64,000 nt of DNA from an uncultured virus (IMG/VR IMGVR_UViG_3300027798_000043) (taxonomy: Duplodnaviria; Heunggongvirae; Uroviricota; Caudoviricetes; Crassvirales), in the IMG/VR virus record IMGVR_UViG_3300027798_000043; one strand, 5' to 3'. A program made the translations under genes and the position numbers. Under the pieces are notes generated by a model. That model was not told the DNA's origin and made no database searches. It saw only the letters and a program-made list of their open reading frames with translations. Below, piece by piece: positions 25,801-55,873 of this stretch (the first letter of the stretch is position 1; each line of letters starts with the position of its first letter).

Positions 25801-28800
25801 TCCTAATAGTGGAGTTCCATTAGCGGCTTATATTAATAAATATTTGCCAGTTAGAGCAATTACATCGTCTAGAAGGGTATTAGAATCCAATTTTACTAGT
25901 GATGTTGAAGCAGAAGTTAATGTAAGAGCTACAGAAACTGCTGATCAAGGAATGACAGTTAATGCTCCTGAAAAACCTAAATATAAAAATGCTTTAGAGT
26001 CAAATATTCTTGAACCTAAAGTTTTAGAAAATGTTACTAATAAAATTATAAGCACTGTTCGATTATTAAAAAGCCGCATAGATGCTCCTGTTACATTAAA
26101 TAGAACTGTAACTCCGCTTATTGCAGAGATACGTGACGAAATTGGAAAACAGTTGGACATTGATATAAAAACAATGTTAGGTGGCAAGAAAGACGGTGCG
26201 CTTAGAAAAGAACTTTTAAAAGCTAAGCGTTATATTCTAGAGAATATGACTACTACTTGGTTAATGGGTAAAGATGGACAAGGTGGTATACCGCAAGCAA
26301 TACAAAAACGTATTGACGGACAGTGGGTTAGTTTTCCTAATTGGGCAGGACAAAAAATAGATCGTGAAGCAATGTCTACTGATTTAGCAGGAAGAACTTC
26401 TGGTGCCGAATTAGTTAGAAGATTGCCTAATGTATTCAATAACGTTTCTAATGAAGAATTTTTAGCGCAAATAATTGGACCAGATGGTAATCCTATTAGG
26501 GGTAGAAAAGAATCTATTTCTAAGGCTATGGCTGAAGAAGTAGCCTTTGACATTACGAAACGTGACTTGGAAGAAGAAGGTCCAATATATGACGCTTTAA
26601 AAGCTAATCAAGAGCGTTTAGGTGTTGAGATTCTAGAAAATTTACCAGTTGTATTTGCTAAACAAGCGGATAGAGGTAATATAAAGCTCTCTAAAAGCGT
26701 AGTAAAAGGTATTAATATTTCAACAACTAAACTAGCTGAAGATATATTTAATGCTCCAGATTTGCAGTCAGAAATAAAAGTTATTAATAATTGGATAGCT
26801 AGCGACGGAAGGTCAATAAGAACATTGGCTTATACTTTATTTGGAAAAGACGATGGGCGAGCTACTAATTTAGGGTTATTTAAACAAATCATTGCTCCAA
26901 TAATAAAAGTTAATTCTAAATTTGAAGGTCTATTAACAAAAGATGCTTACAATATTAAACAAGGAGCAAGAGGTTATTCGATATATTTAGGGGAAGATAA
27001 AATACCATTATGGAAAGATACTGAATCTATAAAAAAGGATTGGAAAAATAATATTGGTGTAATAAATTCAGAAGCGATAGAGGCTACAAATAGATTAGTT
27101 GATATAGTAGACTCTTTTAAAAAGGGTAAAAAGACAGAGGACGATTTAAGGTCTTATTTTGCTGTATTGAAATTTGATCAAAGAGGATTGGCTCGTAAAG
27201 TATCAAAAGCCGGATTAGGTGTATTAGGGCTAAAAGCAAACCAAAAACCATATTTGGAACATAATGCTCCAAACTATGATATTATGGAGAAATTTGTTGA
27301 TTACTTTAATAAAAAAATTACTGAAAAACAATTAAGAAAATTTGTTGAAAATTCAAAAGTAAATTTAGTACCTGTTGAACTAAATAATTTTTTACCTGCG
27401 TATAAAGAAGGCATGAATAGAATGCATGCTCCAAAGGTTGTTTTATATCTTCAGGGATTAATAGATAAAGGCCATACTATATTAAACTTAGAAAACGAGT
27501 ATGGATCAAAAAGAAAATTTAATGCTTTAGTAAATTTAGCAAAATCAAATGTAAACTCAGACGCTAATATAAATAATGCTAATAATATAAATGCAGTTGC
27601 TAATTCTCCAACTTTTTCAAAAACACCTAAAGGAATATCTGTTTTTGATTTTGATGATACTGTAGGATTAACAAAGGGTAGTGTGCTATACACAATGCCT
27701 GGTGATCTAATGGTTTACCATGGTGCACCAAAAGGTAAAGACGTAACTAAGATTAGCGATAAAGGGGTTAAGTTCTTTGCTACTGATAAGCGTGAAGCTG
27801 ATGAGTATGCTCGTATGAACTCAGGTGTTACTCAAGAGTTTTTAATAAATGAGTCTGACTTAGTAAATGAAGATGCTATTATTGAAAAAATTAATGAACT
27901 AGGATTAAAGCCAAAGAATAAAGAATTTGAGGCAGAAGATGCTTCTTTCTATGAATTAATAGATACTAGATTTGAAGAGTCGCTAAGTAAAGCGGATATA
28001 ACAAAACTATTTAACGCTCTCAAGAAAGACGGAATAAAAGCAATAAGTTATAGTGATGGAGCACAGGTAAGTGGCAGATCTACAACCAGTATTGCTGTAA
28101 TTGATCCGTCTATAATAGCTACTCCTAAAAAACTTAATGCAGAAGAGTTTGCTAAAAATGGATCAAAATTATTAGAGGATGGAGCTGTCTTTGATTTCTC
28201 TGAATTTAGTAAAGTTGTTGATGGCAAGCCAGGACCAATGGTTCAGAAAATGAAAAAGATGATTGACAAGTTTGGACCTAAAAACTTCTTTATTCTTACG
28301 GCTAGACCGGCAGATGCAGCGGGACCAATACATGAGTTCTTGAAGTCAATAGATATCAATATACCATTAGAAAATATAACAGGATTAGGCAACAGTACAG
28401 CTCAAGCAAAGGCTGATTGGATGGTGGGTAAAGCTGCAGAAGGATATAATGATTTTTATTTTGCAGATGATGCGCCGCAAAATGTTGAAGCTGTTAAGAA
28501 AGCATTAGAAGTTCCCGGTATAACTTCAAAAGTACAACAAGCTAAACTTAAATTTTCATTAACAACTAAACAAGTTCTTAAATGGGAACTTGATGAAGAC
28601 GGCCACAATGCTTTATTTACTGTTGGAGGAAGAAGATATTATATATCGCTTATAGACACAGGGGCGGTGTCTTACGACGATAAAACCTTAAGTACTCTAT
28701 ATGAAATAGCAGAAAAAAACGATTTAGATACAGACGAAATATTGGTCGCTAAAGACGGATCAAGCTTAAATTTAGAATTCTTAGATAGGAATAAAGGCCA

Positions 28801-35050: not shown

Positions 35051-35335
35051 TTAATTGCAATTGCAATTACGAGCGCTAACTAATTCATAATTAACTTCCA
35101 CACGTTTAATCATACATTCTTGTTCAAGATCAGTTAACTCTTCTTTTAAACGTTGCATGTATAGCACAGCATCCATTAACTCTTCTTGTAAATGATTAGC
35201 CCAAGCAAACAAATCTGACTTGTCATCACGCAATGTTTTACCATATTTTGCAAAGCCAACATCTGATCTACTTATAAATTTGTCTACAACTGATTCAACT
35301 ACTGGATCTCTAAATTCAATTTCTTTTTTTCTCAT
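35051..35335 (-). CDS. Small all-alpha NTP-pyrophosphatase-like protein
   Basis: RSDVGFAKYG.TL, HLQEELMDAVLY (EE..D metal motif). Confidence 0.5.
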   Translation of the reverse strand: MRKKEIEFRDPVVESVVDKFISRSDVGFAKYGKTLRDDKSDLFAWANHLQEELMDAVLYMQRLKEELTDLEQECMIKRVEVNYELVSARNCNCN

Positions 35336-37590: not shown

Positions 37591-39297
37591 TTAGTCCCAA
37601 GGCATCTTATCGTCTGAGCTTACTGCTGGAACGTGTGGTAAGAAACAACCTGAAGCTGGTTCCCACTTGAAATGGCATTCGGCACCATTCTCACCTAGGT
37701 TTTGAAATTTACATTTAAGAACTTTTACTTTAACAGTTTTATCTTCATAGTTTCTATGAACTAATAATCCGTGATATGATGCATCGTACCATTCACCACC
37801 GCCTTTAATGTTGTACATGGTTGGCTCTTCAATCTTGCCACTACTGTCTTTATACATTTTAGTTGGATGCGCTACAACCATAACTAATACATCATACTTC
37901 TTAGCAAAGATTTCAATCTGACTTAAGTATTCTAACGTGTATACATTTACATCGCCAGAAGCATCCGCAGATCTTACCTTATTGAATGGATCAATAACTA
38001 AGCATTTAATTCCTTTACGCTTAACTAGCTCAGCGCCTTTACGCAGTACAGACTCTAAAGTATAACGTTCCATGTCAATAAAAAAGTAATTATCATTAAC
38101 ATGGTCCGCTACTTGATTCCACTTTTCTGATTTAATATCTTCAACGCTAGGCATACCTTGCCAAGTCTTTCTCATTAACTTATGAGCATGCAGATAAGTA
38201 GGGTGATTCTCGGGCGACGCATAAGCAGTCTTCCAGCTATAATTGGCATTATAACCAATAACCATTTGATCAACAAAATCAGACTTACCAGAACTAGGGA
38301 TGCCGGTAACAGTAATGAACTGGCCAGTATACGTAGAAAATATACTGTCGAAATTATCCAGTCCGACTTGGAATCCTGGTTTAAATCCGTTTCTGACAAA
38401 ATCTGTAACCTCGTCTTCAATGTCTCTAAAAGTTGTAACATTTTCAAGCGGAACCGGCTTGGCCCTTGAAATTCTTTGTGATAAAGCTTCTTTTCCATAT
38501 TTAATTAAGTATTCGTTTGCGTCTTTACAATCATCGAAAGTTGCAATATAACAAGTTTCTGATCCTAATCGTCTAACTAATTCAGCTTGCAATGCTTGTC
38601 CAGCAGCATCTGAATCAACTGCTATAATTATCTTTTGCTTGTCTTCAAAATAGTCGATGCAATTATCTAAGTATTCTAAATTGTTAGTATTCAACGTAGC
38701 TCCATTAGGAACTGATATTGCATTTGTTATCCCTGCCTCGTGCAGTGCGAGCACATCCATCTCTCCTTCAACGATAATACAATACTCAAAACCCACAATG
38801 CTATTAATATTGTAAAAAACTTTCTCAGCGCCTTTATACAACTTAAAGTTCTTTCTACCATCTCTGTATTTTATATTTATAAGTTGATCGCCAATGAAAT
38901 AATTAAAGTGTATAGCATTTTCGCTTTTACCAGTTTGAGGCATAAACTCAAGACCTTCAGTAACGCCTAAGTCTATTAATGTTTGTTTTGATATTCCACG
39001 ATCTGCAAACCAGTCAGCCACTTTTGAACTGGGTGGCAATGCTGCAATTTCAGGCGGTCTAACATAAACTTTTTCAGATGCTCCTTTACGTTTGTAGGTA
39101 TGCAATTGAAAAGTTTTATTACAATTCATACAAGTTCCAATACCTCTATCCCAATCATACATAGCGCACTTGGCTTTTTCATTCTTGGCTTTTCTGTCAC
39201 TGGAACATAGAGGGCATGTTCCTTGACTCTTACCCTCTTCAAGTTTGTATTGATTGAATTGGTCAATCAAGAAACCATTTATCTCTATTGTTTGCAT
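37591..39297 (-). CDS. Primase-helicase (T7 gp4/Twinkle-like)
   Basis: Zn finger CPLC...CMNC, TOPRIM VEGEMD/AVDSDAAG/KDANE, Walker A TGIPSSGKS, LVIDP, VAHP. Confidence 0.93.
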   Translation of the reverse strand: MQTIEINGFLIDQFNQYKLEEGKSQGTCPLCSSDRKAKNEKAKCAMYDWDRGIGTCMNCNKTFQLHTYKRKGASEKVYVRPPEIAALPPSSKVADWFADRGISKQTLIDLGVTEGLEFMPQTGKSENAIHFNYFIGDQLINIKYRDGRKNFKLYKGAEKVFYNINSIVGFEYCIIVEGEMDVLALHEAGITNAISVPNGATLNTNNLEYLDNCIDYFEDKQKIIIAVDSDAAGQALQAELVRRLGSETCYIATFDDCKDANEYLIKYGKEALSQRISRAKPVPLENVTTFRDIEDEVTDFVRNGFKPGFQVGLDNFDSIFSTYTGQFITVTGIPSSGKSDFVDQMVIGYNANYSWKTAYASPENHPTYLHAHKLMRKTWQGMPSVEDIKSEKWNQVADHVNDNYFFIDMERYTLESVLRKGAELVKRKGIKCLVIDPFNKVRSADASGDVNVYTLEYLSQIEIFAKKYDVLVMVVAHPTKMYKDSSGKIEEPTMYNIKGGGEWYDASYHGLLVHRNYEDKTVKVKVLKCKFQNLGENGAECHFKWEPASGCFLPHVPAVSSDDKMPWD

Positions 39298-39998: not shown

Positions 39999-40062
39999 AA
40001 TTCTCGTTTTATTTGTTTATAAGGTTATTTGTTATACTATTATTATCAATAGCTATTCGTGT

Positions 40063-40242: not shown

Positions 40243-40252
40243 TTGATTTAAT

Positions 40253-40984: not shown

Positions 40985-40988
40985 ATAG

Positions 40989-42401: not shown

Positions 42402-42812
42402 CTAAGATAGAAATATTTTAAGGGTTTTACCACCATCTTGGTAATCCAATTCAATTTCATTAAAGTCATCCATCTCTTTATACAAAGTAAAAATTCTACC
42501 GAAAGGGTATTTATTTTTGCAGTGATTGATAACTTCGAGACGGGTAACGTGTATAGCACCGTTGCCATGTTGAATTAATGGCGCTGATGGAACAGCTTCG
42601 TATTTGAATTTACCAATAATGTATTGATTGATAAACTTACCTTTGGATTCTGAATCTGCAATACCATTGAATACATGCTTAGGCACTTCTTTATAGATAT
42701 ACTTACTTTTGTTAACGAACTCTACTTGTAAAGCCTCGTTTTCAACATCATACTTTACTTCATTTATAGCCGTGCTATTTACTTTTACTGTTTCTAAAAC
42801 GTTTGTTCTCAT
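42402..42812 (-). CDS. KTSC-domain protein fused to a second small domain
   Basis: STAINEVKYD....LQVEF...KYIYKEVP..VF.....SESKGKFINQYI is KTSC; C-terminal VTRLEVI...QDGGKTLKIFL. Confidence 0.75.
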   Translation of the reverse strand: MRTNVLETVKVNSTAINEVKYDVENEALQVEFVNKSKYIYKEVPKHVFNGIADSESKGKFINQYIIGKFKYEAVPSAPLIQHGNGAIHVTRLEVINHCKNKYPFGRIFTLYKEMDDFNEIELDYQDGGKTLKIFLS

Positions 42813-43432
42813 AAATTTTTGTTTAATAGTTCTTTTTCTTTTTTTAATTCATTACTCATATTTCGATGCACAGTTCTGGTTGTGCAGCCCAATTCTTTAG
42901 CTAACTTAACGATAGTGATTTTTATACCAGCATCGTTAAGATATAACATCATGTCATATATGTCATTCTCAGAGACCTTCTTAGTCTTACCAATCATTTG
43001 TCCAACAATAGAAAGTTTCTCACTTAAACTTAGTTTACATTTATCATTGAAGATAATCTTTCTAGTCTTATTAAATGGTGGATGTTCAAGATCCTGAAGA
43101 GATACATCGTATATCATGCTTTGTAGTAAAGTATCATTAACATTAAAGGTAACAAATCCGTTATTCTTATTAGCAATGAACTTAGCTAAATTAACAAACT
43201 GATCTTGATCCATAGAAGTATTAAGATACCATAAAACATATAGATGCCATTTCAAAGACTTATATGTAGGAATCTTAGCTTTACTTCTAAATAGATCATA
43301 ACATTCATCAGTTCCATTTTCGTAGTAATCACCCCATTCAAACTTCTCAGTTGGTTTATCATTTATAGGAGATTGTTTATATATCACTCTTGTTTTATTT
43401 AAGTATTCTAAGTTTCTTTGATACTGTGACAT
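42809..43432 (-). CDS. DNA-binding protein with C-terminal HTH (possible replication initiator/regulator)
   Basis: C-terminal KITIVKLAKELGCTTRTVHRNM HTH; start codon overlaps inverted-repeat site. Confidence 0.65.
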   Translation of the reverse strand: MSQYQRNLEYLNKTRVIYKQSPINDKPTEKFEWGDYYENGTDECYDLFRSKAKIPTYKSLKWHLYVLWYLNTSMDQDQFVNLAKFIANKNNGFVTFNVNDTLLQSMIYDVSLQDLEHPPFNKTRKIIFNDKCKLSLSEKLSIVGQMIGKTKKVSENDIYDMMLYLNDAGIKITIVKLAKELGCTTRTVHRNMSNELKKEKELLNKNL

Positions 43433-43469
43433 TAGCCTGTTACTTATTATATTAATTAGCTTACGTCAC
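43426..43469. promoter_or_regulatory. Inverted-repeat site copy 1 (GTGACATTAGC-N22-GCTTACGTCAC)
   Basis: Same arms and identical 22-nt spacer at 53762 and 55766. Confidence 0.7.
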
Positions 43470-43570
43470 TCTTTTCATATTCATAAGTTCCATATAACGT
43501 TTCATATATTATTTTTCCTTCGGATCTCTCTTCATCCATATCCATTATATATTCTTTTATTTTACTCATC

Positions 43571-43840
43571 CTAATTATTTTTTGCAAGTTCATCGCTTAG
43601 CGCTTTTATTTTACCTGTTATTTCTATTACTAGTTCGTATTTTTCATCCGCAATATACTGCGCTTTAATTATGTTCAGCGCAGTAATTTGATCTATAAGT
43701 GCCTGGCGATCAGACGCATAATGATAGTGTTTGTCCCATTCTTCTTGCTTCGCCAGTAGTTTTTGAAACACACTTGATGCAATTTTCTCAATATCTTCAT
43801 CTGACATACTATTCATCTGTTTTAAGATCGCCGTAGACAA
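43571..43840 (-). CDS. Hypothetical protein with UVR-like C-terminal motif
   Basis: YIADEKYELVIEI..KIK resembles a UVR coiled-coil motif; true start may be the second Met (43808). Confidence 0.5.
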   Translation of the reverse strand: MSTAILKQMNSMSDEDIEKIASSVFQKLLAKQEEWDKHYHYASDRQALIDQITALNIIKAQYIADEKYELVIEITGKIKALSDELAKNN

Positions 43841-44210
43841 GTTGCCACTGGGTTAATAATATATCGTCTAACTCTTCTGTGATGGCATCGTTGTTTAGAT
43901 CTATGCTCTCTATTTCAATTCTACGGTCGTAGTTGATATTAAACTCAGCAGAGTCGTAATCAATAACTTCATTGTTGCTTTGATCTAAGAAGTTTTCTAG
44001 CTGGTTTCTAACAGCAGAAGCAAACTCTTGAAACTTTTCTTCGTCAATAAGATAAGCGGCAGGCTGAGGTAACATTTCGTGTATAGCATGCAGCGATTCA
44101 GTTCTTAAGCTGGACAACAACGTTATTACGTCGTCTTTAGAAAAGATACTTGGATAAGCATCTATAGTTTTCGCTATTTGTACATCAAAAAGATCATTAA
44201 TTTTTTCCAT
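43809..44210 (-). CDS. Hypothetical acidic protein
   Basis: 133-aa ORF directly downstream of promoter motif 44241. Confidence 0.75.
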   Translation of the reverse strand: MEKINDLFDVQIAKTIDAYPSIFSKDDVITLLSSLRTESLHAIHEMLPQPAAYLIDEEKFQEFASAVRNQLENFLDQSNNEVIDYDSAEFNINYDRRIEIESIDLNNDAITEELDDILLTQWQLVYGDLKTDE

Positions 44211-44275
44211 TGTTTTTAGTTGTTTGTTTATTTATATTAATATTATCAATTGTTATTCGTGTTTGTTTTGTAAGA

Positions 44276-44488
44276 TTATTTATTTAGATCACTTCTATTG
44301 TAGTGAACTTCTTTGTCCATCTGTTCATAATATTCTTTTATATCCCAGTTTGCTTTAAGATTATATTTTCTATCGCAGATTTCATTGCAATATAATGCTT
44401 GAGTGAATCCGGTATTTATAATTTTACTACAGCAGTGACAAAGTGTTGCCCCGTTGCCATTGTTAAACTTGTGAATTGGCTTTATCAT
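44276..44488 (-). CDS. Small Cys-rich hypothetical protein
   Basis: KFNNGNGATLCHCC..II...LYC...C, possible Zn-binding. Confidence 0.65.
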   Translation of the reverse strand: MIKPIHKFNNGNGATLCHCCSKIINTGFTQALYCNEICDRKYNLKANWDIKEYYEQMDKEVHYNRSDLNK

Positions 44489-44736
44489 TCTATTAATTTA
44501 TCAATATTAATAGAATGCTCATCAAGTATATCTATTATTCCATTAGCTATAAAATTTATAGCCTCACTTACAGCGTCACTTACAGTATCACCTACGGCAT
44601 CATTTTCAAACTTTCTTTGTGCCGTCTTACGCAATTGTAATATATCAAATAAAGCACAAACCATATCTAACGACTGATTAACTCTATTAAACTCTATTTG
44701 GTCTTCGGGTAAATTAAATTCTAGCTTTGCTTTCAT
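44485..44736 (-). CDS. Hypothetical protein (paralogue of 47038-47286)
   Basis: MKAKLEFNLPEDQIEF vs MKATIKFKLPNDSYEF. Confidence 0.7.
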   Translation of the reverse strand: MKAKLEFNLPEDQIEFNRVNQSLDMVCALFDILQLRKTAQRKFENDAVGDTVSDAVSEAINFIANGIIDILDEHSINIDKLIE

Positions 44737-44880
44737 TTTATTTCTTTTTAAATTGTTTAAACCATTCTTTCATTCCATTATATATTTTTTCATCTAAAAA
44801 AGACAATAATTTGTCTCCGTTGCTTGATATTGTTGAGTTTTCCATTTGGTTCAATTTATTGAATTAACTTTAGCGAGTAG

Positions 44881-45114
44881 TTAGGTGTAATGCCATTCGG
44901 ACACTTCACTTCTTTCAAAATGTTTTTGATGTGAAAAATGTTTAGTCCACCAAGCAAATGCACGAAATGAACCACCCCATAAATGCTCATAATATCCTTT
45001 ATACCATTTTTCACCTACTTTAAATTTTAACTCGTAATATGATGAAGGCACTACACCTAACAGCACATTACCAAAAGTGGGGTTTATCGTTTTTAAATCA
45101 GCTTTTACACTCAT
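44881..45114 (-). CDS. Hypothetical protein inside attC-like inverted repeat
   Basis: 77-aa ORF; body bounded by a 15-bp IR. Confidence 0.6.
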   Translation of the reverse strand: MSVKADLKTINPTFGNVLLGVVPSSYYELKFKVGEKWYKGYYEHLWGGSFRAFAWWTKHFSHQKHFERSEVSEWHYT

Positions 45115-45134
45115 ATCAAATTTATTTTTTCATA

Positions 45135-45908
45135 TTATTTCTTTTTAAATTGTTCAACTTTATCTCTAAAACTTTGCAATACCTCATATTCAGTAGTTCC
45201 TTTTAACAGAGATATTAATACATCCACTTCTTCATCACTATAACTTTTTTCTTGTTGCCATTTCGCACCTTCAGTAAAATCTTTTCTTTTAATTAAAGAA
45301 GCATCATAGCTTGTGGTATTACCTAATTTAATTATATTTTCAGGATATAATCTTTCAGCAACTTCTTCAAGTGTTTCTTGTTTGAATAACTCCATTGCTT
45401 TATCAAACTCTTCTATATTATCATTGATAAGTTCTACGTGTTGTTTAGGTTCTTCTTTTAAAATGATGATTTTGTAACCTATTTTTTCAGAATAGATATA
45501 AGGTAAACCTTTAAGATGTCTTTCCCTTAATTCATCAACATTAAAGTACTTTAAATCAACATCAATCTCAACAACCTCACAACTTGGATTCTTAATAAAC
45601 CATTCAAGAAATTCATTATCAAGAGCTTGTACACCATCTTTGATTAGGTCTTGGTCTGTTGTTAGGATGATTTTTTTATAAAAATACTTGTTACTTGGTA
45701 ACTTAAATTGCAGTATACTTTTATATTGTTCTGAATAAACCCAATCTACTTCTTTAATTTCTTCATCATTAGTGATGTAAATGTTTACATTTCTACAAGG
45801 TGGATACCCATAATCAAGTTTTGTAATAACTAAATTTTTATTTGAATTGATATATACCCTACTTGGTTTATCTGTTGGTATTACCCATAAATTTCTTTTC
45901 TTTTCCAT
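45135..45908 (-). CDS. Hypothetical mosaic protein
   Basis: IPTDKPSR, NIYIT.DEEIKE.DW, KKIILTTDQDLIKDGVQA, KQETLEEVAE, GAKWQQE blocks typical of flavobacterial phages. Confidence 0.75.
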   Translation of the reverse strand: MEKKRNLWVIPTDKPSRVYINSNKNLVITKLDYGYPPCRNVNIYITNDEEIKEVDWVYSEQYKSILQFKLPSNKYFYKKIILTTDQDLIKDGVQALDNEFLEWFIKNPSCEVVEIDVDLKYFNVDELRERHLKGLPYIYSEKIGYKIIILKEEPKQHVELINDNIEEFDKAMELFKQETLEEVAERLYPENIIKLGNTTSYDASLIKRKDFTEGAKWQQEKSYSDEEVDVLISLLKGTTEYEVLQSFRDKVEQFKKK

Positions 45909-45996
45909 TATTCTGTTCCTTTTTTAATTAAATAATACCATAGCCAAATTATCTTTGATCTTGTAAATTCATAAGCCGCTAATACTAATATGTATT

Positions 45997-46674
45997 TCAT
46001 ATTACTAATACATTACCATTACTTGTTAATTTGCCAAATTTTCTATCGGTTACTACTGATCCATTACTAAACCATGTGTCGCATATACTTAATTTCTGAA
46101 GTCCAGCATTAATAATACCACCCATATTATGGATATGACCAAATAAATGATATGCAGGTTGAACTTCTAATAGTTTATTAAGTAAAGATTTATCGCCACA
46201 ACATTCTAGTAAACCATCACGATTTTCAGACTTGTCTAAAATATTTTTAGGGGGACCGTGGGTAATAACAATATTAGTTTCATTGTGTATAGCATCACAC
46301 CAGAATCGGTCAAGTTTATTTCGATCTCTCATAAAAGACCAATTACCAAAGTTAGGTGTATAAGGCGAACCAAATATTTTAATACCTTCAATGGTAACAT
46401 AATCATTTTCTAGGTATATAATACCGTTGTCTTCAAAATCTTTTTTAGTTACTAGTTTCTTTTCAATGCTAGAGTCGTGGTTACCAGCTACGTATATTTT
46501 ATACTTAGGCGATAACTCTTTATACCAGTCAATGAATTCTCTAACCTCAGGTTCGTTATTGTATGGATCTCTAGGATTGCTGCAATCACCAGAATGTATT
46601 ACCATATCAATAGCTCTAGGTACTTTTAATAAGTCGTGATACGTGTGAGTATCGGAAATGTGCCATATTTTCAT
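45997..46674 (-). CDS. Calcineurin-like metallophosphoesterase
   Basis: HISDTH, HSGD, AGNHD, THGPP, FGHIH. Confidence 0.9.
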   Translation of the reverse strand: MKIWHISDTHTYHDLLKVPRAIDMVIHSGDCSNPRDPYNNEPEVREFIDWYKELSPKYKIYVAGNHDSSIEKKLVTKKDFEDNGIIYLENDYVTIEGIKIFGSPYTPNFGNWSFMRDRNKLDRFWCDAIHNETNIVITHGPPKNILDKSENRDGLLECCGDKSLLNKLLEVQPAYHLFGHIHNMGGIINAGLQKLSICDTWFSNGSVVTDRKFGKLTSNGNVLVI

Positions 46675-46840
46675 TATTCTTTATCTTCTACGAATTCTTT
46701 GAATCCATTAATAATTGTGCTGTGATGAAATGTAACCGCTATTAGCAGAGCGTAAAATACATCTACATATTCGTCAATTCCCATATCGTCACCTTCAATT
46801 TCAGTTGAATGTTTTCTTCCTTCCGCTTCTATCGTAATTT

Positions 46841-47038
46841 TCATAATTTATTATCTTTTTCTATTAATTGAAATATATAACTCCATACTTTAACCTCAAA
46901 CCTGTCTCTTATATTTAATTCTATTTGATGGGCTTTATCTATTTTCCAATATAAGTTCGGATCATTAGCTTCAATTGTTGCAGTTAATAATGCGGATTCT
47001 ATTTTCATTCTAGCGGATTCTTTAATTTCTTGCATCAT
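46841..47038 (-). CDS. Hypothetical protein
   Basis: 65-aa ORF coupled to neighbours. Confidence 0.6.
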   Translation of the reverse strand: MMQEIKESARMKIESALLTATIEANDPNLYWKIDKAHQIELNIRDRFEVKVWSYIFQLIEKDNKL

Positions 47039-47286
47039 TATCCTAATTTATCAAGGTCTATATTCCATTCGGTTAACAATTCGTTTATTTTATCAAATAC
47101 TAAATCTACGCCGCCATAAGCGCCACAGTCTTTACCGTTTGCTAAATCTCGATCAAGATCCCACTCACATTTTCTTTTTATATTATGAGATAATTCCCAT
47201 AATAAACCGGCCATAGCGGGTGCCATATTGTGTATAGCAAATTCATAACTATCGTTTGGTAACTTAAATTTAATTGTTGCTTTCAT
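47038..47286 (-). CDS. Hypothetical protein (paralogue of 44485-44736)
   Basis: Shared MKA...F.LP.D..EF N-terminus and ...NIDL/IDKL C-terminus. Confidence 0.7.
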   Translation of the reverse strand: MKATIKFKLPNDSYEFAIHNMAPAMAGLLWELSHNIKRKCEWDLDRDLANGKDCGAYGGVDLVFDKINELLTEWNIDLDKLG

Positions 47287-47287
47287 A

Positions 47288-47761
47288 TTAGTTAGGTCTT
47301 GTTCTTATTTCTTCGTTACTATTTCGTATTTTTATTTTTTCAGCTTCGTAATAATTCCAGTAAGCAGTTACGCTGTCACCGGGAACTTTGTATTCATCAG
47401 GCATACATTGAGGCATTGGCGTGGCGCCGAGGTTTAACATACCTCCGGGTATATTACTTAATACATCTTCGCACTTTGTTATAGTTAAATGCTTTTTGCC
47501 GTAACGTTTGGTATACTCTTCGCCAAGCGCTAGCATGTGAAAGTACAGCCATGCGTAATTGTCAGCAGATTCTCGTGCCCATATAGCTGACGGATGATTT
47601 TTATGGGTCATCTTGTATGGTACATCTGCATCATCGCCATCTAACATAATATGGGCAGTACATAATAATTGTGCGGATTCTAAGATCATTTTTACAACGT
47701 GCTTATTGTACATCATTGTAGCCGCTTTGTCAGGATCTTTGTCTAAATAGAATATATTCAT
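47288..47761 (-). CDS. Pyrimidine-dimer DNA glycosylase (DenV)-like family protein
   Basis: MNIFYLD..P..AA....KHVVKMILESAQLL, YK.THKNHPS.IWAR, EY..RYGK.H, PQCMPDEY. Confidence 0.7.
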   Translation of the reverse strand: MNIFYLDKDPDKAATMMYNKHVVKMILESAQLLCTAHIMLDGDDADVPYKMTHKNHPSAIWARESADNYAWLYFHMLALGEEYTKRYGKKHLTITKCEDVLSNIPGGMLNLGATPMPQCMPDEYKVPGDSVTAYWNYYEAEKIKIRNSNEEIRTRPN

Positions 47762-47955
47762 AGTTTGTTTGTTTATTATATTATCAAAGTTGATTCGTGT
47801 TCAGTCTGTAAGTTGCTGATTGTAGCTTTTTATTATGTTTATACAGTCGATTACCCCTACAATATGAACAACTGCCATTATTTCTACAGGATCTATCAAA
47901 TACTCTTGATTTTCTGTACGCTTGTTTTACTGTTCTGCTCATAGTATTTAATTTA

Positions 47956-48267
47956 GGAACTAAAAGGGGAATCGAACCCCAAAACCCGTCGGTTGTGCCA
48001 GTAATCTTCTGTCCTTCACTTAGCTCTTGTTAACCCGGGAGGCGTCGTAAATTTTTGACCCCATATTTCAGGGGCAACCACAGCGCTACTGTTGGAATTA
48101 ATTCATGCGACCCTGAGCGATTAACATATCGTTGTATCTTTTAATTCTGCCACGACCAATGCAAGAATCGACCGGGGGCACCCCAATCCCATAATTCAGA
48201 ATTATGTGCTGTTTCCCACAAAACACAACCTCTACACTACCTTACCGATCGGATCAGCAGGACAATT
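47956..48267 (-). ncRNA. Putative ~310-nt structured RNA with tRNA-like 3' end
   Basis: ORF-free, GC-richer; GGGG-TTCGATT-CCCC T-arm; GAGCTAA/TTAGTTC acceptor-like pairing; TGTCCT/AGGACA long-range pairing. Confidence 0.55.
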
Positions 48268-48278
48268 GTGTATAGCAA

Positions 48279-48887
48279 TTAGTGGATAATTAGACCCACT
48301 TTGTTAGTTTTGTTGAACCATCTAGTAGCATATAAATCTATTTCGCTAGTGTCAATATAGCCAAACTTAAGTAGCTCAGCACTGTTACTAAAGATTCTTG
48401 CGTGACGATCAACTTCTAAGTCAACCATGTGTTTTTGTTTACCAGACATACTATAGATAACGTCATAGTTTTCAGGTAAAGTTACTTCTTTAAATAGTTC
48501 AACCATATTAGTGTAACTGTAAAACCTAACGTTGGGATTATTTTTAGCGATCTCAATCCACTTCTGTAGATATTCTCTGCTATAGTAATCGCCGGAGTCG
48601 TGAACCCTCACATACTGAGGCTTCTTCTTCTGAATTTCCGCATTCATCTCAACTATGAAATCTGATGTTTTGGTTAACTCGTATCTTCTCTCAAACGCAG
48701 GTTTTACATTACCCCATATATACGCGCCCTTTTTAGCGTAACAAAACTTTACGCACTCATCAGCCATAGGACATGTTAATTTACCAGATGCGGATTTATA
48801 TGCGGGTATACCGAAGTTAAATACTTTAAGACCTAATACTTTGCTAGTCTTTTTTAATTTGGAATTCTGAGTGAGTAAGCTTGCCAT
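48279..48887 (-). CDS. Gp88-like protein (Cys-triad, radical-SAM-related)
   Basis: LLTQNSKL.KT, TCPMADECVKFCYA, VRVHDSGDYY, RFYSYT. Confidence 0.7.
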   Translation of the reverse strand: MASLLTQNSKLKKTSKVLGLKVFNFGIPAYKSASGKLTCPMADECVKFCYAKKGAYIWGNVKPAFERRYELTKTSDFIVEMNAEIQKKKPQYVRVHDSGDYYSREYLQKWIEIAKNNPNVRFYSYTNMVELFKEVTLPENYDVIYSMSGKQKHMVDLEVDRHARIFSNSAELLKFGYIDTSEIDLYATRWFNKTNKVGLIIH

Positions 48888-48889
48888 TG

Positions 48890-49165
48890 TTAGTTAAATT
48901 TAATTGTTACGCCATTAGCTTTGATTCTTAAGATGCTTGCCAATGTTACCATTCTGTAGCTATCATCGTCCATTGAAAATACTTTCAATAAGTTGTAATT
49001 TTTAGGGTTATAAGCTAGCCCTTTACCTGTAAGATTTTTAGCCACGCCAAATCTAGCGTTGAAAGATCTTCTTGTACCATCTTTTTTAATAAAAGCGATG
49101 TTGAATATTCTACCTGTATCTCCTACAAGTTCATGAATAAATTGTGCTGTTTTTAAGTTTTTCAT
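48890..49165 (-). CDS. WYL-like SH3/Sm-fold protein
   Basis: FNIAFIKKDGTRR.FNAR...VFSMD...YRMV. Confidence 0.55.
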   Translation of the reverse strand: MKNLKTAQFIHELVGDTGRIFNIAFIKKDGTRRSFNARFGVAKNLTGKGLAYNPKNYNLLKVFSMDDDSYRMVTLASILRIKANGVTIKFN

Positions 49166-49224
49166 TTTTAATTTATTTTAGTTACATTTATATTATCAAT
49201 TGTTATTCGTATCCGTTTTGTAGA

Positions 49225-52200
49225 TTAATCCAATAATACCATATAAGCATCAGGATTTGCACGTCTAAACCAATCTAACGCTTTAACAAGGGTTTGATCT
49301 TGTTTGCCTACATATACACAACCCATAATGAAGTCATACATACTTAATTCTGCAGGTGTTAAATCTATGCTGTAGCCGCTGAATGGATTAGTAACTTCGC
49401 TGCCGTCAGTGTATAGCATACCGTTGAACCATTTTGGTAGTAGCTGCTCTTTAATTTCTTTGCTCATTGATTTCTTGTTTTGCTTGTTCACTAATTTGTT
49501 CACTAATCGCTCCAATATGGAATTCTACTGATTCATCTTCAGACAACTGTCTATATTCTTTCCAATCATATATGGTAAATACATCACCATCTTCAGTCTC
49601 GCAATCCCATTCGAAGTTAACTTTATCTTCACCATAGTTATCTTCAAAGCTTGGGTTACCAAATAATTCTTTTAACTTAGCTACCGTGGTAGTTATCGTA
49701 GTGCTATAAAAGCTTGTGCCATTTATACTTTTATTTGTTACTTTTGCCATTATTGTTTATGTTTTTTAAGTGTTAAGTCGTCTACTGTGTTTGTTATTTG
49801 TTTTACCATTTGTTCTAAATAAGCTACAGTAAATATACCGCGCCCGCCTGTAGCTTCGTGCTCATTAATATCATTACTCCATTCTTTAAGTAATATTTGT
49901 AGTCCTTCCTTTAAAAACCACGCTTCCTGACCATTTAATTTTTTCATAGTTGTTATGTTAAAACGATTCTTAATTTACTATCTTCAGTTTCGCCGGTTAG
50001 CATTTGTCTTTCATTGTCAAATACTAAATCAACTTTTAATTTTTTAGCAGCACTCAATGTATTGGGATTGATATGCCCTTGTAAACTGATTTCATCTTTA
50101 TGAACCCATACGTTTATAGAATAGAAATCTTCAAATTCTATAGATTTAGATAAAGTAGCAAATCTACCGACTAAATTAATTTTTTTAGTTAAATCACTCA
50201 TAGTTGTTATATTTTATTGGTTACATTATTATTATCAATTGTTATTCGTATCCAGTCTGTAGAACTGATCTAATACTAATTGCTCAAGCTTCTCTAATAG
50301 CTCATCATCAAGATCATCATCATCAAAGATAATAGTTATTTCTTCGTCACGTTCATATTTACGATCTCCTCTTATAATTAATACGCCTTCGTAAGTTTCA
50401 CCGCCAATTGTTACTTCACCGCCGGGTAATGTTATTTCTTCAGCATCCAAAGTTACATCAAAATAATAACGATCTACTGTCCTGCTAGAGGAATGGCTTA
50501 TGTCTACTATGTTTTTCATTACTGTATTACTTTTATAAATTGTCCGTTTTTATCGTATAATATGTTTAATTCTAATTCGTGATCTACTGTATCGATCATT
50601 GCGTTAATATCTTGGAACTGTAGACCAAGAGAAAATTCTTCAGCCGTTAATTGCATACCGCGGTAGTGTATAGCATAGTCATACAAGAGTTGTGGGTTAA
50701 CTACTCGGCCGTTGCGCATTGCAATCCATTTACTTTTTATTTCGTCTTTTACCATAGCTTAGTTCTAATCTTAAATAATTATTATATACTCTGTTATATC
50801 CTTCAACCATTTTCTCATTGCTGCAATACTCTACATTTTGTATTATATTCCGCATCCATGAGTTAAACTTGTCGGTTTCTTTAATTGCTAATTGTTCTAT
50901 AGTCATGTTAGTCTTCTTTAAGTAACCAGGTTATTAATTGTTTTTTATCGTCAAATACAAAGACCTCAGGGCTCTGTTTTAACGCTTGTCTTACAAACTC
51001 ACGTTTAGTTGGTTTTGTCCAAGAGTACGCTACAGATAAGTCGTTAAGGGACATTGCTGCAAACGAATCTTCATCTTTCTTAACAACGATATTCTTGGGA
51101 CCGTTATTCCATTTAATACCAACATTACAACTGTCAGTTACTTCTGTTATATCAATGTTTTCCGCATCAAAATGTACTACTCTTTTCATATTAATATTTT
51201 TCTTTAATTTCGGTTAATGTTAGGTTATAGTGATTCCATAATTTTGTTCTACTAAATGCACTCGCTTTCGCGCCATAAGAAGACTTCATCTTCGTTTTAA
51301 CTTGTTTATAGTCATCGCTATTAAACTGTTTGCACATGCCATCAGTATTTACGGCATTGATCCTGTTCGCTCGGTTATGTGCTTTCTTTTCTTCAAGATA
51401 TTGGCACGCTTCTTTCATATTGTTCGCTATTACTATCATTAGTCTTTGATTATATAGGTTAAACCGTTTAAATTGAACCACTCAGAGTAGCCGTCTTGAT
51501 CTTCGTCATTAGTTATAAATCCGAACTTTGAGGGTAGATCACCGACAAGATATGACGTGTATAGCACACCGTTTAGTTTAATAAAATTGTTCTTTAAAAA
51601 CTTGATTGATTTTTTTTCTTTGTTCATAGTTGTTTAGTATTGGTTACATTATTATTATCAAACTTAATTCGTATTCGTTCTGTAAAGGTTATTGATTTGC
51701 TAACGCTATTGCTAGTTCTTCGTGTATTTCGTCGATCATTCTTAGTATGTGGTATGATGCATGTACTTGATGGTTATCATTGCATCTTAAGGCATCAGCG
51801 AGTACATCTGTATGCTCGTCTTTTAAGTGGTCAATAGCCACTTGAATTACATTAGCTTCTTGTTTTGTTATTGTTATAACCATAGTGTTTAGTCGTTTAA
51901 GTATTCGGTTAAAGCATAGTTAAATGCAGATTCTAATAAATTTAATTCGCAGATCTCGCCAATTCGTTTGTTTACTAATATACATTCAGCATCAGTGAAT
52001 ATAGCTTTGTCTGTTTTGTCGATCACGTCAGCCGGATCGTCTTCAAAGTGAAATAATCTATCGTTTAATACTAGATTGTCGACGAAAGACTTCATGTCAG
52101 CTGAAGACTTAATTTGCTTGTTTAAGAATATCATAGTAGTTTGTTTTAGTTACATCAATATTATCAAATCTAATTCGTATTCGTTTTGTAAGGGTGTTAT

Positions 52201-55200
52201 ATTGCCATGATGTCAGTGCAATCAAAGTCTTCCCAGTCTAATACGATTTCAGCTTTACTGTATTGATCGGTGACAATGTCAACCGCTGTTTGTTCGTCAA
52301 CAGCATCGATGTATAGCACTCTAGATGCCGTTTCTACAATTCTAATTTTATATTCCATATTAATCTTTATATTTTACATCCGCCATAAAGCTAGCGCACG
52401 CTATGTTACTTAATCTTTTTAATTCCGCATAGTACTCGGCATTAACAGTCTTATCAACAATCCAATCAACTAATTTACCATAGTCATCGGTGTGATATGT
52501 TGAATTCTCAATATTACATTTGTACATTTGTCGATCCGGAAAATACGGATTAATATACTCTACAATTTGGTTATCTCCTATCATACTTTATTTTTTATAA
52601 ATTATCATTTCATATTTATTAGGTATATTTTCAAAATATAATCCACTTGCATTTAATATTGACTCATAGTATTTATAGTGTTCAGCTAAGGTTGTATAAC
52701 CTAAAGTATATTCACCACTATTAATAGGTTCGATATTTATAAATCCTAAGTAACCATCGTCACTTCGATCAAATTGGAAATCATTTCTTATAATTCCAAT
52801 ACACTCACACACTAATCTATCTATACTATTCATCTTCCTCATCATCGTAAAATTCGCAATGTTCCATACAATCTGGACATAATCCATACTCTTCCATGTC
52901 GGTGTATGCACCGCAACAATCACTTACTAAACTCATATTTTCTATTTTTTATTTATTATATTTGTTATATTCTATATCTTGTAGTGCATTCTGATTTATC
53001 TGCATTTATATGGTATTTATTTGCTCATTTGTTAGCGAATTTCGCCACATTTGTATGTATTCTTCTTCTTCAGGGTATTCCGCCAAAGAACCTTTGTTAT
53101 TAGAGTTCATAAATTCTTCGCCAAACATATAGGTAAAGTACTCTTTTTCAGTCATTCCATAGTAATCTTGCATAGTAGAATTAGTTATTGTTAGTTACAC
53201 TTATATTATCAAATCAATCTCGTATTCGTTTTGTAAGGGTGGATAGATGTTTAATCGATTTTAAAGAGATAATGGTATAATCCCTGACTTCACTAAGCCT
53301 TAGTCATTTCGGTACGATACATAAGCCCAGATTGCCTGGTTGATACGGTCGAGTTCGCATTTGCCTCCGAGGTAACGGTGTATAGCATTGTAGAACTTAG
53401 TTAGTTCGACGCAATTCTTGCAAAAGTACATTTTAAAGATGTCAATTTCTTCGCCTTGCATGAAATTTAGTCCAACAATATCGTCTCCTACTTTTTCGAT
53501 GTAGACATAGCGGTCATCTTGGTTGCACCATACGATCTCTTTACTCTCAATAATCTTGTATTCACTCATAGTAGTTGTTTTTAGTTACATCATTATTATC
53601 AAAAGTCATTCGTGTTCGTTTTGTAAGCGGTGCTATACACGTTTTACTTCGAAAACGGTGAGAAATGATCGTTTTACCTCAAATTTGGGTATGTTGTAGG
53701 ACGGAGTCTACTCTTCCGGCGCTATCTCAAAGCCAGGCTAACATAGTGTATAGCAAAAAGAGTGACATTAGCTGCTTATAACTACTAATAGCAGGCTAAC
53801 GTCGCTGTTTTTTATGTGTTATTCGTTATCTTTATCGATCATTTGCTTCAATTTACCTTCGAGCATTACGGTGCCGACTGTTCGATCGTAGTCACGTACT
53901 TCGATGCAATTATCGATTACTGTGAATTGATATTCCGTAGCGTCTTTTGGCGTGTATAGCACAACCGTAGTTACAATAGTTCCGATTAGCATTCCAATTA
54001 TTAGTTTCATAGTTGTTTATTTCATAGTTGTTTATTTTAGATTCATTATTATTATCAATTGTACTTCGTATTCGTTCTGTAAGTGTATAGCATCCCCGTA
54101 GGGAGCCAAAGCAGTCTAACTTAGACTTGCTTCAGCATCTTGAAATTCTTTTGAATTTTCATTGATTTCAACTTCAACTTCAATTGTTGCATTCTTGATT
54201 GATAATTCAACAACTTCTAGATTTTCAATGTTAGCTAGATGTCTGACATTACTTGGCATATCAGTAGATTGTGACCAGTATTGTCTTTTAATCCAACATG
54301 GCATTATTGATAGCTTTGGTAGCATGACTTTTAATACTTCATCATGATTGTAAGTTACTTTCTGATTTTTGTTGTTGATGAAAGTTATTACTTGATTTCG
54401 GCCAAGCCAATTCTTTCTGACTACGAAGTTAGCTCGTTCGATCGGCGGATAGATTAAAGCCAAGTCAGCAGTTGATAATTTAGCGATCGCTTGTTGTAAT
54501 AATTCTTGATTGTTCATAGTTGTTTAATTTAAAGTTTATATTATTATTTGTTAGTTACATTATTATTATCAAAGTCTGTTCGTATCTAGACTGTAAGAAG
54601 TTGTATAGCATTTTTATTCTATTATAGTTAAGTCAACTATTATTTGTTCAGTTTCTGGATCAAAAATATATTTGATTTTATTATTGTTTAAATAGTTCAG
54701 TAAGTCAGTTCTAGTTTCTTCGTTCATATTGTTTGTTTTTATATTCATTATTATTATCAAATTCAATTCGTATTGGTTTTGTAAGTTACTTTATTTTTAT
54801 TTAGATTAGTTTGTTACTTTGTTACTTACATATATATTATCAAATACCATTCGTATTCAGACTGTAAATGCTATACACGAGCTCCGCTCGCAAGCTCGCA
54901 CGGTCCCGGCTGCCAATTCCATCGAGTGGAGTAAAAAGGTCCCGATTAAAGGACCGAATTCCGTTATGTTAGTTCAGTGCTGGATCGAACTCTTCGGAGT
55001 CAACCCATGCCCAGTACGAAGCTCCTTGTCGGGTCTCATCCCACTTGCACATGCCTGAGATCGCGAAGTTGTGCGTGATGCACGTTTGGACCCAGTCCTG
55101 GCCGAATTGCCATCTTGTTTCCTCGATCATGTCGAGTCTCGTTTGTGGATGTAGATCATTTAATCTTTTCATGCGATGTATTCGTTTAGTTGGTTTAATT

Positions 55201-55226
55201 GTTCTTGAGTTAGGCTTGATCTCCAC
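49225..55226 (-). other. Cluster of short hypothetical early ORFs
   Basis: 49225-49467, 49451-49750, 49750-49947, 49953-50201, 50235-50519, 50519-50755, 50908-51189, 51191-51420, 51439-51627, 51689-51883, 51889-52134, 52360-52584, 52588-52832, 53300-53569, 53819-54010, 54116-54517, 54969-55283; co-oriented, many with AAACAACTATG-type starts and preceded by the promoter motif; some starts uncertain. Confidence 0.75.
53762..53805. promoter_or_regulatory. Inverted-repeat site copy 2 (GTGACATTAGC-N22-GCTAACGTCGC)
   Basis: Intergenic; 6 nt after a GTGTATAGCA copy. Confidence 0.7.
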
Positions 55227-55340
55227 GCTTGTACGTAGACTTCATCTTCTTGATATAGTAATTCTAATTCTTCTTCTGACATTTTGTAGTATTTATTTGT
55301 TACATATATATTATCAAATGTACTTCGTATTCGTCTTGTA

Positions 55341-55873
55341 GGAAATGCTATACGCGTTGCTATACACGCTCAGCGTCGCTCCGCTCCGTGTCGTAACATA
55401 ATGCCACATAGCGCACATAGCCCCGTCATACGGGAATGTATTGTATTACGTACATATAATACCATATCGTACATAATAACGTACACACGGCACGTAGCAG
55501 CAGCTAGCAGCCAGCCCTGGAAAGCCGGAACCGTTCACGGAATCCCACGGGAAAGTCGAAACGATACGCCGAAAGCCGGAATATATTCGGGGACCCGGCA
55601 AAATGAAATGCAATTCCGTTTCCGTTTGGAAAAATGAAAATACGTATATAGCCCCTTAATTATATATATCTGACAATACGCTTTTACCTCCACGCGAGAC
55701 TACGCCGGGCTACTAAAAAATTTTTTATTATATTTTTTTTAGGAACTACTTGTTGTGCTATAATAGCGACATTAGCTAGTTATATTATATAGTAGTAGGC
55801 TAACGTCACTGTTTTACGATGCTGTAAGATTTTGGTTTCTTGCGTGAGTATATAACTATATTAAATTTAAGAT
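55341..55873. other. Non-coding strand-switch region (candidate genome terminus/origin)
   Basis: Divergence point of early and late transcription; GC-richer, short repeats GAAAGCCGGAA (55520, 55571) and CGTACA x3. Confidence 0.5.
55766..55809. promoter_or_regulatory. Inverted-repeat site copy 3 (GCGACATTAGC-N22-GCTAACGTCAC)
   Basis: Upstream of the first + strand late ORF. Confidence 0.7.

Follow-up and report, generated by a model that had tools for sequence, protein, structure and literature searches.

Localized single-strand interruptions have been known in the DNA of phage T5 since the 1960s, and were later found in phiKMV-like and tf/LUZ24-like Pseudomonas phages. A comparable situation is described here for an uncultured virus (IMG/VR record IMGVR_UViG_3300027798_000043), of which a stretch of 64,000 nucleotides (nt), hereafter called the window, was analyzed. 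The window holds a polar array of a 10-nt word, with the consensus TGCTATACRY, which is probably a site- and strand-specific nick motif.

One of these systems is that of phage tf, in which 14 nicks are located at 5'-TACT/RTGMC-3', on a single strand, with 11 of the 14 in the genome's left half. This word is common to LUZ24, PaP3, and phiMR299-2, at similar positions (PMC3517423). In phage Rembedalsseter, nanopore sequencing gave 13 strand-specific coverage drops at WACTRTGAC. This word, the function of which is unknown, is conserved in 61 phages; coding sequence holds 88% of its copies, which are 'mostly' on the coding strand (PMC11780129). For T5/BF23 and phiKMV-like phages, the two sources describe one-strand breaks at a consensus, unevenly placed, dispensable in T5, and also of unknown function; they present neither the enzyme nor the purpose of phage nicks as known (PMC3517423, PMC11780129).

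Occurrence and Conservation of the Word

The word TGCTATACAC is found 17 times without mismatch in the window, 13 times on the minus strand (38.9–54.1 kb) and four times on the plus strand (27684, 53631, 54869, and 55358). The number expected by chance is 0.17, and the largest value obtained in 100 dinucleotide shuffles was 1. A previous sequence-only reading of the window, made by a model, had reported these 17 perfect copies, all of which are found where it had placed them. It had also counted four copies with one mismatch, a number that has to be corrected to six (23 sites at ≤1 mismatch), with about 4.2 expected for the one-mismatch class alone; four of these six deviate solely at positions 9–10. 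TG precedes every occurrence of the 8-mer CTATACAC in the window.

The same reading had described a polar array with a density gradient, and this description stands. The spacings it had listed are correct, perfect copies are indeed absent from 1–27.6 kb and from 55.4–64 kb, and the density falls away from the divergent early-gene end (Spearman rho of spacing against rank, 0.89); the word is not uniformly distributed over the genome. Its claim that selection acts on the nucleic acid and not on the peptide can also be retained, given a codon-aware shuffle and synonymous conservation in relatives. When the proteins and the codon usage of each gene were kept, 300 shuffling trials gave a mean of 1.15 copies and a maximum of 5, which does not explain the 17 observed. 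As it had noted, copies within genes are read in two different frames, as A-I-H or L-Y-T; there are 11 copies within credible open reading frames (ORFs), all on the sense strand.

The word is present in 37 of 45 near-complete relatives, with 3–20 copies each, compared to 0–1 for a reversed-word control. Over 144 loci (2.37 Mb), the exact word was found 381 times in the early-gene direction and 96 times in reverse. An alignment of 328 non-redundant sites revealed no information outside positions 1–10, except for a weak avoidance of C at −1/0 and for a purine at position 11. The variants are almost solely found at position 9 (A to G, 76 cases) and position 10 (C to T, 48 cases), with at most six at each other position; GC is the second most common ending (76 sites, vs 200 for AC). 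The consensus is, therefore, TGCTATACRY.

The primase gene, compared in 79 relatives, offers a good example of the way this word is maintained. Relatives holding the peptide ENAIH mostly keep AAT GCT ATA CA[C/T] amid variable flanking codons, while motif-less lineages have ENVIK, ENTIK, or ENVIN at the same site. In the late arm, the site orthologous to the copy at 27684 is retained in two relatives (G002 and G004); the peptide is V-L-Y-T with the motif vs V-I-V-T without it, and motif-less relatives carry I-V or V-V. From these patterns, it follows that the DNA word itself is selected, and that it imposes amino acids on the proteins.

Eight of the 45 near-complete genomes have no copy, and no substitute over-represented word was found in the motif-free relatives. 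A GC-rich word of G040, GGCAACGTCGGGAT (11 times, at 976–4087 and 64653–64974), was rejected as a substitute, being a coding repeat (..MRI.S.GNVGIGT..) of a fibre-like protein. In a quick version of the primase-helicase tree, motif-bearing lineages are basal and widespread, and motif-less lineages are nested in at least two to three places (a 15-row clade with G030, G040, G041, and G042; G045; and L131/L143). No consistent hairpin was found around the word, the mean folding energy of 40-nt windows (−3.9 to −5.0 kcal/mol) tracking their G+C content. A full-text literature search for the word and its complement yielded only primers and short hairpin RNAs among the matches listed.

Contig Ends at the Word

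Direct support for the reading of the word as a nick site, which was not among the proposals of the sequence-only reading, comes from contig ends located at a single phosphodiester within it. The ends of contigs from relatives were examined in 224 IMG/VR loci, providing 188 true ends, with arbitrary locus cuts as a control. Fourteen of these ends (13 non-redundant) read inward ATAC[AG][CT], starting right after TGCT, for 0.26 expected (binomial p = 4e-20), compared to one of 258 arbitrary cuts. The other side of the cut (AGCA) is not enriched among the ends (2 vs 0.9 expected). Nine of the 14 ends are located upstream of a gene encoding an 83-amino acid (aa) protein (55874..56125, plus strand), and five correspond to internal early-arm copies (L013, L067, L082, L109, and L112). 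For instance, L109 starts exactly at ATACACTTTAAT of the ENAIH site in the primase gene (window 38908), and L067 at the ATACAC orthologous to the copy at 48268. Four ends start with ATACGC, at GC-ending copies such as that at 55346, and, of all copies, that at 55358 is the one whose counterparts in relatives most frequently form a contig end.

An independent set of metagenome contigs gave the same picture. Five of 48 upstream-side ends start with ATACAC, four of them in contigs that do not duplicate IMG/VR loci; this start was met in 0 of 33 downstream-side ends and in 0 of 79 arbitrary cuts. One of these contigs (L307) starts at the ATACAC orthologous to the copy at 54869. No end was found within 30 nt of a complete 9-mer (0 of 117), although an end that cuts the word removes it from this count. 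Molecules, thus, break at TGCT/ATACAC on the motif strand, either partially or on one strand only.

Another start site was met in two contigs (L211 and L253), which begin at ATA(A/T)AACCCCTTA, matching a ATAGCCCCTTAATTATATAT repeat of the window (around 55643–55676), about 170–230 nt upstream of the 83-aa gene. It may represent another hotspot for ends, or mark the limit of a terminal repeat.

Placement Rules and Early Promoters

In relatives, 274 non-redundant sites could be classified according to their genomic context. Inside ORFs, 168 are on the sense strand and 28 on the antisense strand, while intergenic copies have no orientation bias (41 forward vs 37 reverse). Their position within ORFs is broad, and their distance to the next start is not fixed (25–382 nt in the window). 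Of 125 pooled spacings, 56 are between 750 and 1500 nt, and the copies are spaced more regularly than randomly placed ones would be, also with the gradient retained (Fisher p = 0.003). Spacing widens with the rank from the control region, with Spearman rho values of 0.89 in the window, 0.81 in G002, and 0.84 in G036, and more weakly in G035 and G004. The orientation flips near the head of the late-direction arm, in relatives as in the window; typically, two to three copies, at most about 1.7 kb upstream of the 83-aa gene, face that gene, and those farther up face the early arm.

The 11 copies of the window that lie in ORFs, all on the sense strand, begin with the late-arm copy (27684..27693, plus) in a 2827-aa ORF, followed on the minus strand by those in the primase-helicase gene (38908..38917), a KTSC-domain ORF (42549..42558), an ORF at 44079..44088, a metallophosphoesterase ORF (46285..46294), further ORFs at 47230..47239, 49409..49418, 50666..50675, 51557..51566, and 53378..53387, and a small ORF (53952..53961). 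The variant TGCTATACAT, which matches the consensus, occurs twice on the minus strand, at 35157..35166 and, in an ORF and on its sense strand, at 52309..52318. Two other minus-strand copies are intergenic, one directly 3' of the stop codon of a GP88-family ORF (48268..48277), and one directly after a terminator-like hairpin at 53765–53811 (53746..53755).

The remaining copies are found in the neighborhood of the early promoters, or at the head of the late-direction arm. A ~45-nt host-type early promoter, hereafter PX (40049..55330, minus), is present 14 times, exclusively on the early arm and in each case 20–35 nt before an ATG. It consists of a −35-like TTACA and a conserved ACGAATACGAA spacer, followed by TTGATAATAaTAATGTAAC, the whole element running from cTTACAaAACGAATACGAAt to TTGATAATAaTAATGTAAC. 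The PX anchors, all on the minus strand, are at 55317, 54843, 54760, 54572, 54058, 53602, 53212, 52167, 51661, 50238, 49199, 47787, 44249, and 40049, so that their density, like that of the word, is highest near 55 kb. For five of the seven PX promoters in 53.2–55.3 kb, a copy of the word, in either orientation, is located 0–5 nt upstream of the −35-like element. The copy at 53631..53640 (plus) in the control region, reversed relative to the early arm, is 4 nt from the TTACA of PX-53602, and that at 54083..54092 (minus) is 0 nt from the TTACA of PX-54058. A variant, TGCTATACAA (54601..54610, minus), is 4 nt upstream of PX-54572, although it is a rarer form for which a function is less sure, and the copy at 54869..54878 (plus) is 1 nt from PX-54843, in reverse orientation. 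The late-direction arm is headed by the last copy (55358..55367, plus), which precedes the 83-aa gene by 507 nt and is in tandem with the variant TGCTATACGC (55346..55355, plus).

Between these tandem copies and the 83-aa gene lies a noncoding stretch of about 500 nt, partly G+C-rich (55368..55873, plus), which may be a physical genome end, a terminal repeat, or an RNA gene. Related terminator-like long hairpins (GACATTAGCTGCT...AGCAGGCTAACGTC, then a T run) are present at 53753–53811 and 55757–55815, each closing an ORF-free stretch that starts at a plus-strand copy (53631 and 55358, respectively). One hairpin arm recurs downstream (53730s), and pairing with this repeat could give another hairpin, whose loop would contain the motif.

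Homology breakpoints between relatives gather at PX (25 vs 8.1 expected), and the PX repeats look like the recombination points of early-gene mosaicism. Parts of the window were also found in six metatranscriptome runs, four of which were aligned; these are contigs, and therefore provide no transcript starts, strands, or levels. Contigs from RNA runs join across PX, from 39302 to 55295, 50205 to 55292, and 51652 to 52159.

The 83-aa Protein as a Candidate Reader

Of the 92 ORFs of the window, only three (the KTSC-domain ORF, a fibre protein, and the 83-aa ORF) are shared by the four motif-bearing genomes compared in full and missing from each of the six motif-free genomes compared. The 83-aa gene is found in 33 of the 45 near-complete genomes, all 33 motif-bearing, and is absent from all eight motif-free genomes, as well as from G041, which has one motif copy. 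Its product is very basic and highly conserved, and belongs to phrog_6437, a family with no assigned function; it is a candidate reader or nickase by co-occurrence only. Thirty-eight positions are invariant in 30 sequences, including D47, D49, H50, D52, R54, Q60, N61, R62, G63, and N64, within the invariant block D-x-D-H-x-D-G-R...Q-N-R-G-N. The AlphaFold model (mean predicted local distance difference test, pLDDT, of 64.6) consists of two confident N-terminal helices and a low-confidence hairpin. In the ESM language-model space, the protein has a weak neighborhood to HNH_3/HNH clusters (0.92, a level described as 'often chance'). This neighborhood and the invariant block favor a beta-beta-alpha-metal motif of the HNH/His-Me finger type; the negative Pfam, PDB, hhalign, and fold comparisons count against it, and the model has low confidence over this region. 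A tblastn search of 50,697 phage records, with the low-complexity filter on, gave no match.

The other candidates fit less well. The KTSC-domain ORF is present in 27 of the 45 genomes and is missing from nine motif-bearing ones, and a 133-aa early ORF (54119–54517) is missing from motif-bearing G027–G029 and G031–G034. The presence/absence pattern is not matched either by the sigma-like, resolvase-like, RecE-like, Pyr_excise, or metallophosphoesterase ORFs.

A Possible Mechanism of Nicking

If the word is a nick site, a DNA-cutting activity would recognize TGCTATACRY and break the motif-bearing strand between T4 and A5. The phage DNA would thereby gain localized single-strand interruptions, as in T5, phiKMV-like, and tf/LUZ24-like phages. 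The break would be a nick rather than a double-strand cut, because near-complete contigs read through every copy and because the ends are one-sided. This one-sidedness would result from the extension of the 3'-OH at T4 by a polymerase, with displacement or run-off of the strand beginning with 5'-ATACAC, whether this happens inside cells or in the course of amplification. Sites might avoid the template strand so that RNA polymerase (RNAP) is not blocked.

The nicking enzyme would be phage-encoded, and it is possible, although doubtful, that it is the 83-aa protein. As for the function, the preferred guess, also a tentative one, is that nicks act as swivels or as 3'-OH entry points on the first-expressed arm, because the spacing clusters around 1 kb on this arm and because no DNA polymerase match was found. 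Combining both, the 83-aa protein could be a minimal sequence-specific nickase of an undescribed family, introducing non-template nicks that serve as swivels and/or 3'-OH starts for strand-displacement synthesis; in that case, the one-sided 5'-ATACAC ends would represent tails of replication intermediates primed at nicks. This joint proposal is unlikely as a whole but, if true, it would supply both an enzyme and a function for the 50-year-old puzzle of phage nicks.

Several points weigh against the nick-site reading and its candidate enzyme. Contig ends are indirect evidence of a nick, and their one-sidedness is accounted for by inference. Twenty near-complete contigs provide 40 ends, none of which is located at the word, all copies being read through; therefore, the breaks are partial, or they are bridged in deep assemblies. 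The copies are found on both physical strands (13 minus and 4 plus), unlike those of tf, LUZ24, and T5. In diverged relatives, a copy abuts the −35 element of an early promoter in 14 non-redundant cases (seven per orientation), and such copies could point to a regulatory role, instead of nicking or in addition to it. Regarding the 83-aa gene, three motif-bearing genomes (G006 with 3 copies, G017 with 3, and G026 with 11) do not detectably carry it, although the G017 and G026 contigs apparently start in the control region, where it would sit. Conversely, L284 carries the gene with only one variant copy of the word in 19 kb, and shared ancestry partly confounds the co-occurrence of gene and motif. 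Finally, no nuclease family was detected for the 83-aa protein in Pfam, by PDB sequence comparison, or from the fold of its model, and an hhalign comparison with two phage HNH proteins was negative.

Alternative Explanations

The word may be considered as a single-element promoter or RNAP loading site, comparable to the T4 late TATAAATA or to a short promoter of a phage RNAP, which would allow sense re-initiation about every kb and the synthesis of small noncoding RNAs in the control region. The sense orientation within genes (168 vs 28) would suit such a role, but neither the broad position in ORFs nor the lack of a fixed distance to gene starts would. The word resembles an extended −10 element (TGnTATAAT), a purine is favored right after it, and the G+C content is slightly higher downstream (0.41 vs 0.35), but there is no partner element and the flanks are not graded. 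A sigma-factor-like ORF is indeed present in the window (41640–42401, minus; phrog_351, E = 5.7e-19, with a weak match to Sigma70_r2). However, this gene is shared by motif-bearing and motif-free relatives, and the identity reaches 62–68% in the latter, above that of motif-bearing G004 (54%). No frame of the window contains the DFDxD motif of RNAPs. In favor of a promoter, early promoters of the virion RNAP have reportedly not been found for phi14:2, a crAss-like phage (bioRxiv 10.1101/2020.03.07.982082). An ORF-free stretch, closed by one of the two related terminator-like hairpins, follows each of the plus-strand copies at 53631 and 55358, which would be consistent with the transcription of small RNAs. 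Nevertheless, motif-free relatives have no substitute word, and DNA contigs of 16–48 kb ending inside the word are left unexplained. Overall, a promoter function is improbable.

About as improbable is an array of binding sites for a small phage regulator (e.g., the 83-aa protein), which would switch the early PX promoters, the intragenic copies being auxiliary or acting as roadblocks. The copies placed 0–5 nt upstream of the −35-like element in the window, and their recurrence in diverged relatives, would be explained in this way, but this adjacency is perhaps the mere result of scarce free intergenic space, and the majority of sites (168 + 28 of 274) are intragenic and far from promoters. A regulator binding duplex DNA would be indifferent to orientation, as intergenic copies are (41 vs 37); the 6-to-1 sense bias in ORFs is not expected from it. 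Roughly one third of the copies there would be expected to be antisense, because the reverse word has one stop-free, Cys-free frame. The 83-aa protein, basic and with two confidently predicted N-terminal helices, could bind DNA, but the site is asymmetric and single, with neither dyad nor direct repeat, and binding itself does not explain breaks at a fixed phosphodiester. The sequence-only reading had proposed a repressor array that shuts off early genes: some copies do abut early promoters, in either orientation, but a repressor role was not demonstrated. Its other suggestions, an antitermination site and a handle for genome internalization, were not demonstrated either.

The ends themselves can be seen as a terminase or genome-end signal, in which the copy upstream of the 83-aa gene would be the physical terminus, with occasional secondary cuts or packaging starts at internal copies. 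Nine of the 14 IMG/VR ends and three to four of the five metagenome ends are at copies 0.3–1.1 kb upstream of this gene, in a divergent noncoding region, where LUZ24 (with convergent arms) has its terminal repeats. One-sided ends are, in addition, expected from directional packaging, but internal copies in the opposite orientation (L013, L067, L082, L109, and L112) also give ends, which would imply packaging in the opposite direction. For this reason, a terminus alone cannot account for the array; moreover, one end does not need 15–20 dispersed copies, selected at the DNA level and clustered about 1 kb apart. Near-complete contigs are broken at arbitrary places and never at the word (0 of 40 ends), and the 'direct terminal repeats' annotated in IMG/VR are at differing map positions between genomes. 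A physical end may well coincide with, or lie beside, the copy that precedes the 83-aa gene, but an explanation of the array by termini is quite improbable.

Finally, the word could be a signal for a host enzyme, either Chi-like, as suggested in the sequence-only reading, or of another recombination or protection type. This would agree with a polar array whose orientation diverges from a single region, in the manner of Chi and KOPS at an origin, and with the ERF and RecE-like exonuclease encoded by the phage, but it is very improbable: the word is at background frequency in the genomes sampled, namely five candidate-host Flavobacteriales metagenome-assembled genomes (MAGs; 0–7 copies) and 401 Bacteroidota genomes (at most 22 copies seen in 6 Mb, near the reversed-word control), ten invariant bases are long for a Chi, and homology breakpoints between relatives gather at PX and not at the word (4 no farther than 20 nt from it, vs 6.0 expected). 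A likeness to the DnaA box (TTWTNCACA) was rejected, because it does not account for the invariant 5' TGC.

Genome Organization and Host Group

The window represents a ~65-kb genome of a crAss-related podophage with Flavobacteria-like hosts, probably Flavobacteriales of fresh water. Hundreds of related genomes of 61–68 kb are available in IMG/VR, and Flavobacteriales MAGs are the main place where mis-binned copies of the phage are found. Cultured relatives (the Flavobacterium 'elemo' phages and Cellulophaga phi38:1/phi19:3) are distant, with terminase identities of 37–43%. The nearest GenBank phage is MW202828, with a terminase that is 62% identical, and the word is absent from its first 50 kb. 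This motif-free stretch (L204, 1–50000) carries 11 copies of a 16-nt palindrome, GTGTCGTTAACGACAC, which might correspond to operators or terminator stems.

The late arm (1–31.3 kb, plus) encodes the terminase, a P22-like portal, crAss-type muzzle proteins, other virion proteins, and the 2827-aa ORF. The early/replication arm (31.4–55.3 kb, minus) encodes ribonucleotide reductase, thymidylate synthase (ThyA), the primase-helicase, ERF, the RecE-like nuclease, the sigma-like ORF, and many small ORFs, while the arm from 55.4 kb onward (plus) is made up of small ORFs and fibre genes. MazG is also encoded in the window. No DNA polymerase family was matched in the 24 ORFs of at least 150 aa (Pfam) or in the 92 ORFs (PHROGs), and the phage may depend on the host DNA polymerase. 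The 2827-aa ORF (22823–31306, plus) adjoins the crAss-type muzzle genes. On the DFDxD criterion, it was rejected as a crAss-type virion RNAP, and, given its weak ART-PolyVal match as the only one, it is probably an ejected polyvalent cargo protein. The promoters served by the sigma-like ORF are presumably late ones, on the plus arm.

Other observations concern accessory genes and RNA. GroEL-like and GroES-like proteins are encoded at 45–1314 and 3215–3835 (plus; phrog_5725, 3188, and 13932), and the annotation of MW202828 likewise contains groEL and a chaperonin 10 kD subunit. The ORF-free gap at 39170–39840, upstream of the primase-helicase gene, has the top contig depth in three of the four aligned RNA runs (47.9, 7.98, and 10.3). 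It contains a sigma-70-like promoter with 11 of 12 matches (39477–39449, minus) and a strong terminator-like hairpin (39355–39335, minus), and may encode an abundant small RNA. There was no Rfam match in the whole window at the gathering score, nor over 53.4–56.0 kb at E up to 1, and a tRNA scan of the window found none.

Comparison with Known Systems

Reading the array as nick sites would extend the phenomenon to abundant uncultivated freshwater and marine phages of the Flavobacteria type, related to crAss-like viruses. It would also mean that nick motifs, and even the position of the cut, can be read from assemblies alone, through contig ends. Compared to the classical systems, it would offer natural genomes by the hundreds, in which the motif has been lost repeatedly and is accompanied by a single small gene. 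Any functional model has to comply with the rules found here, namely the sense strand in genes, a clustered spacing of about 1 kb, and a gradient from the early end.

Short words co-oriented with transcription are also known from T4, whose late promoter TATAAATA is self-contained, occurs within and between genes, and is read by gp55; nicks in the non-transcribed strand act there as clamp-loading 'enhancers' of late transcription. The T4 late promoters are located just upstream of late genes, whereas the position of the word relative to gene starts is not fixed, and the word does not co-vary with the sigma-like gene of the window. T5/BF23 and phiKMV-like phages share with the window site-specific one-strand breaks at a consensus (here deduced from contig ends), unevenly placed. 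T5, however, has few major nicks, and its short consensus is also present un-nicked on the other strand, while phiKMV has a consensus of about 19 nt at three to four sites on the non-coding strand. An array with a spacing of about 1 kb is seen here, and in neither of them.

The tf/LUZ24-like phages differ in their word and in their host, Pseudomonas, compared to a Bacteroidota-type host here. Their nicks are experimental, while those of the present phages are deduced from contig ends. In the latter, the copies follow the sense strand of each arm, take both orientations between genes, and, for some, abut early promoters. No homolog of the 83-aa protein was found in LUZ24 by hmmsearch. The likeness is, nevertheless, extensive. 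In both cases, a sharply bounded asymmetric word of 9–10 nt, with two degenerate positions only, is repeated 9–20 times in a 45–65 kb podophage genome with two opposed transcription arms. It is found mostly in coding sequence and mostly on the coding strand, is indifferent to the reading frame, and is kept across relatives with little nucleotide similarity. LUZ24 has nine copies, all on the plus strand (1918–29861), with spacings of 1423, 1995, 1115, 1965, 4860, 7497, 4576, and 4512 nt; like the window, it thus combines a concentration in the early arm with a spacing of 1–2 kb that widens with distance. Even the position of the break is alike, falling after T-R-C-T both in tf (TACT/R) and in the phages described here (TGCT/A).

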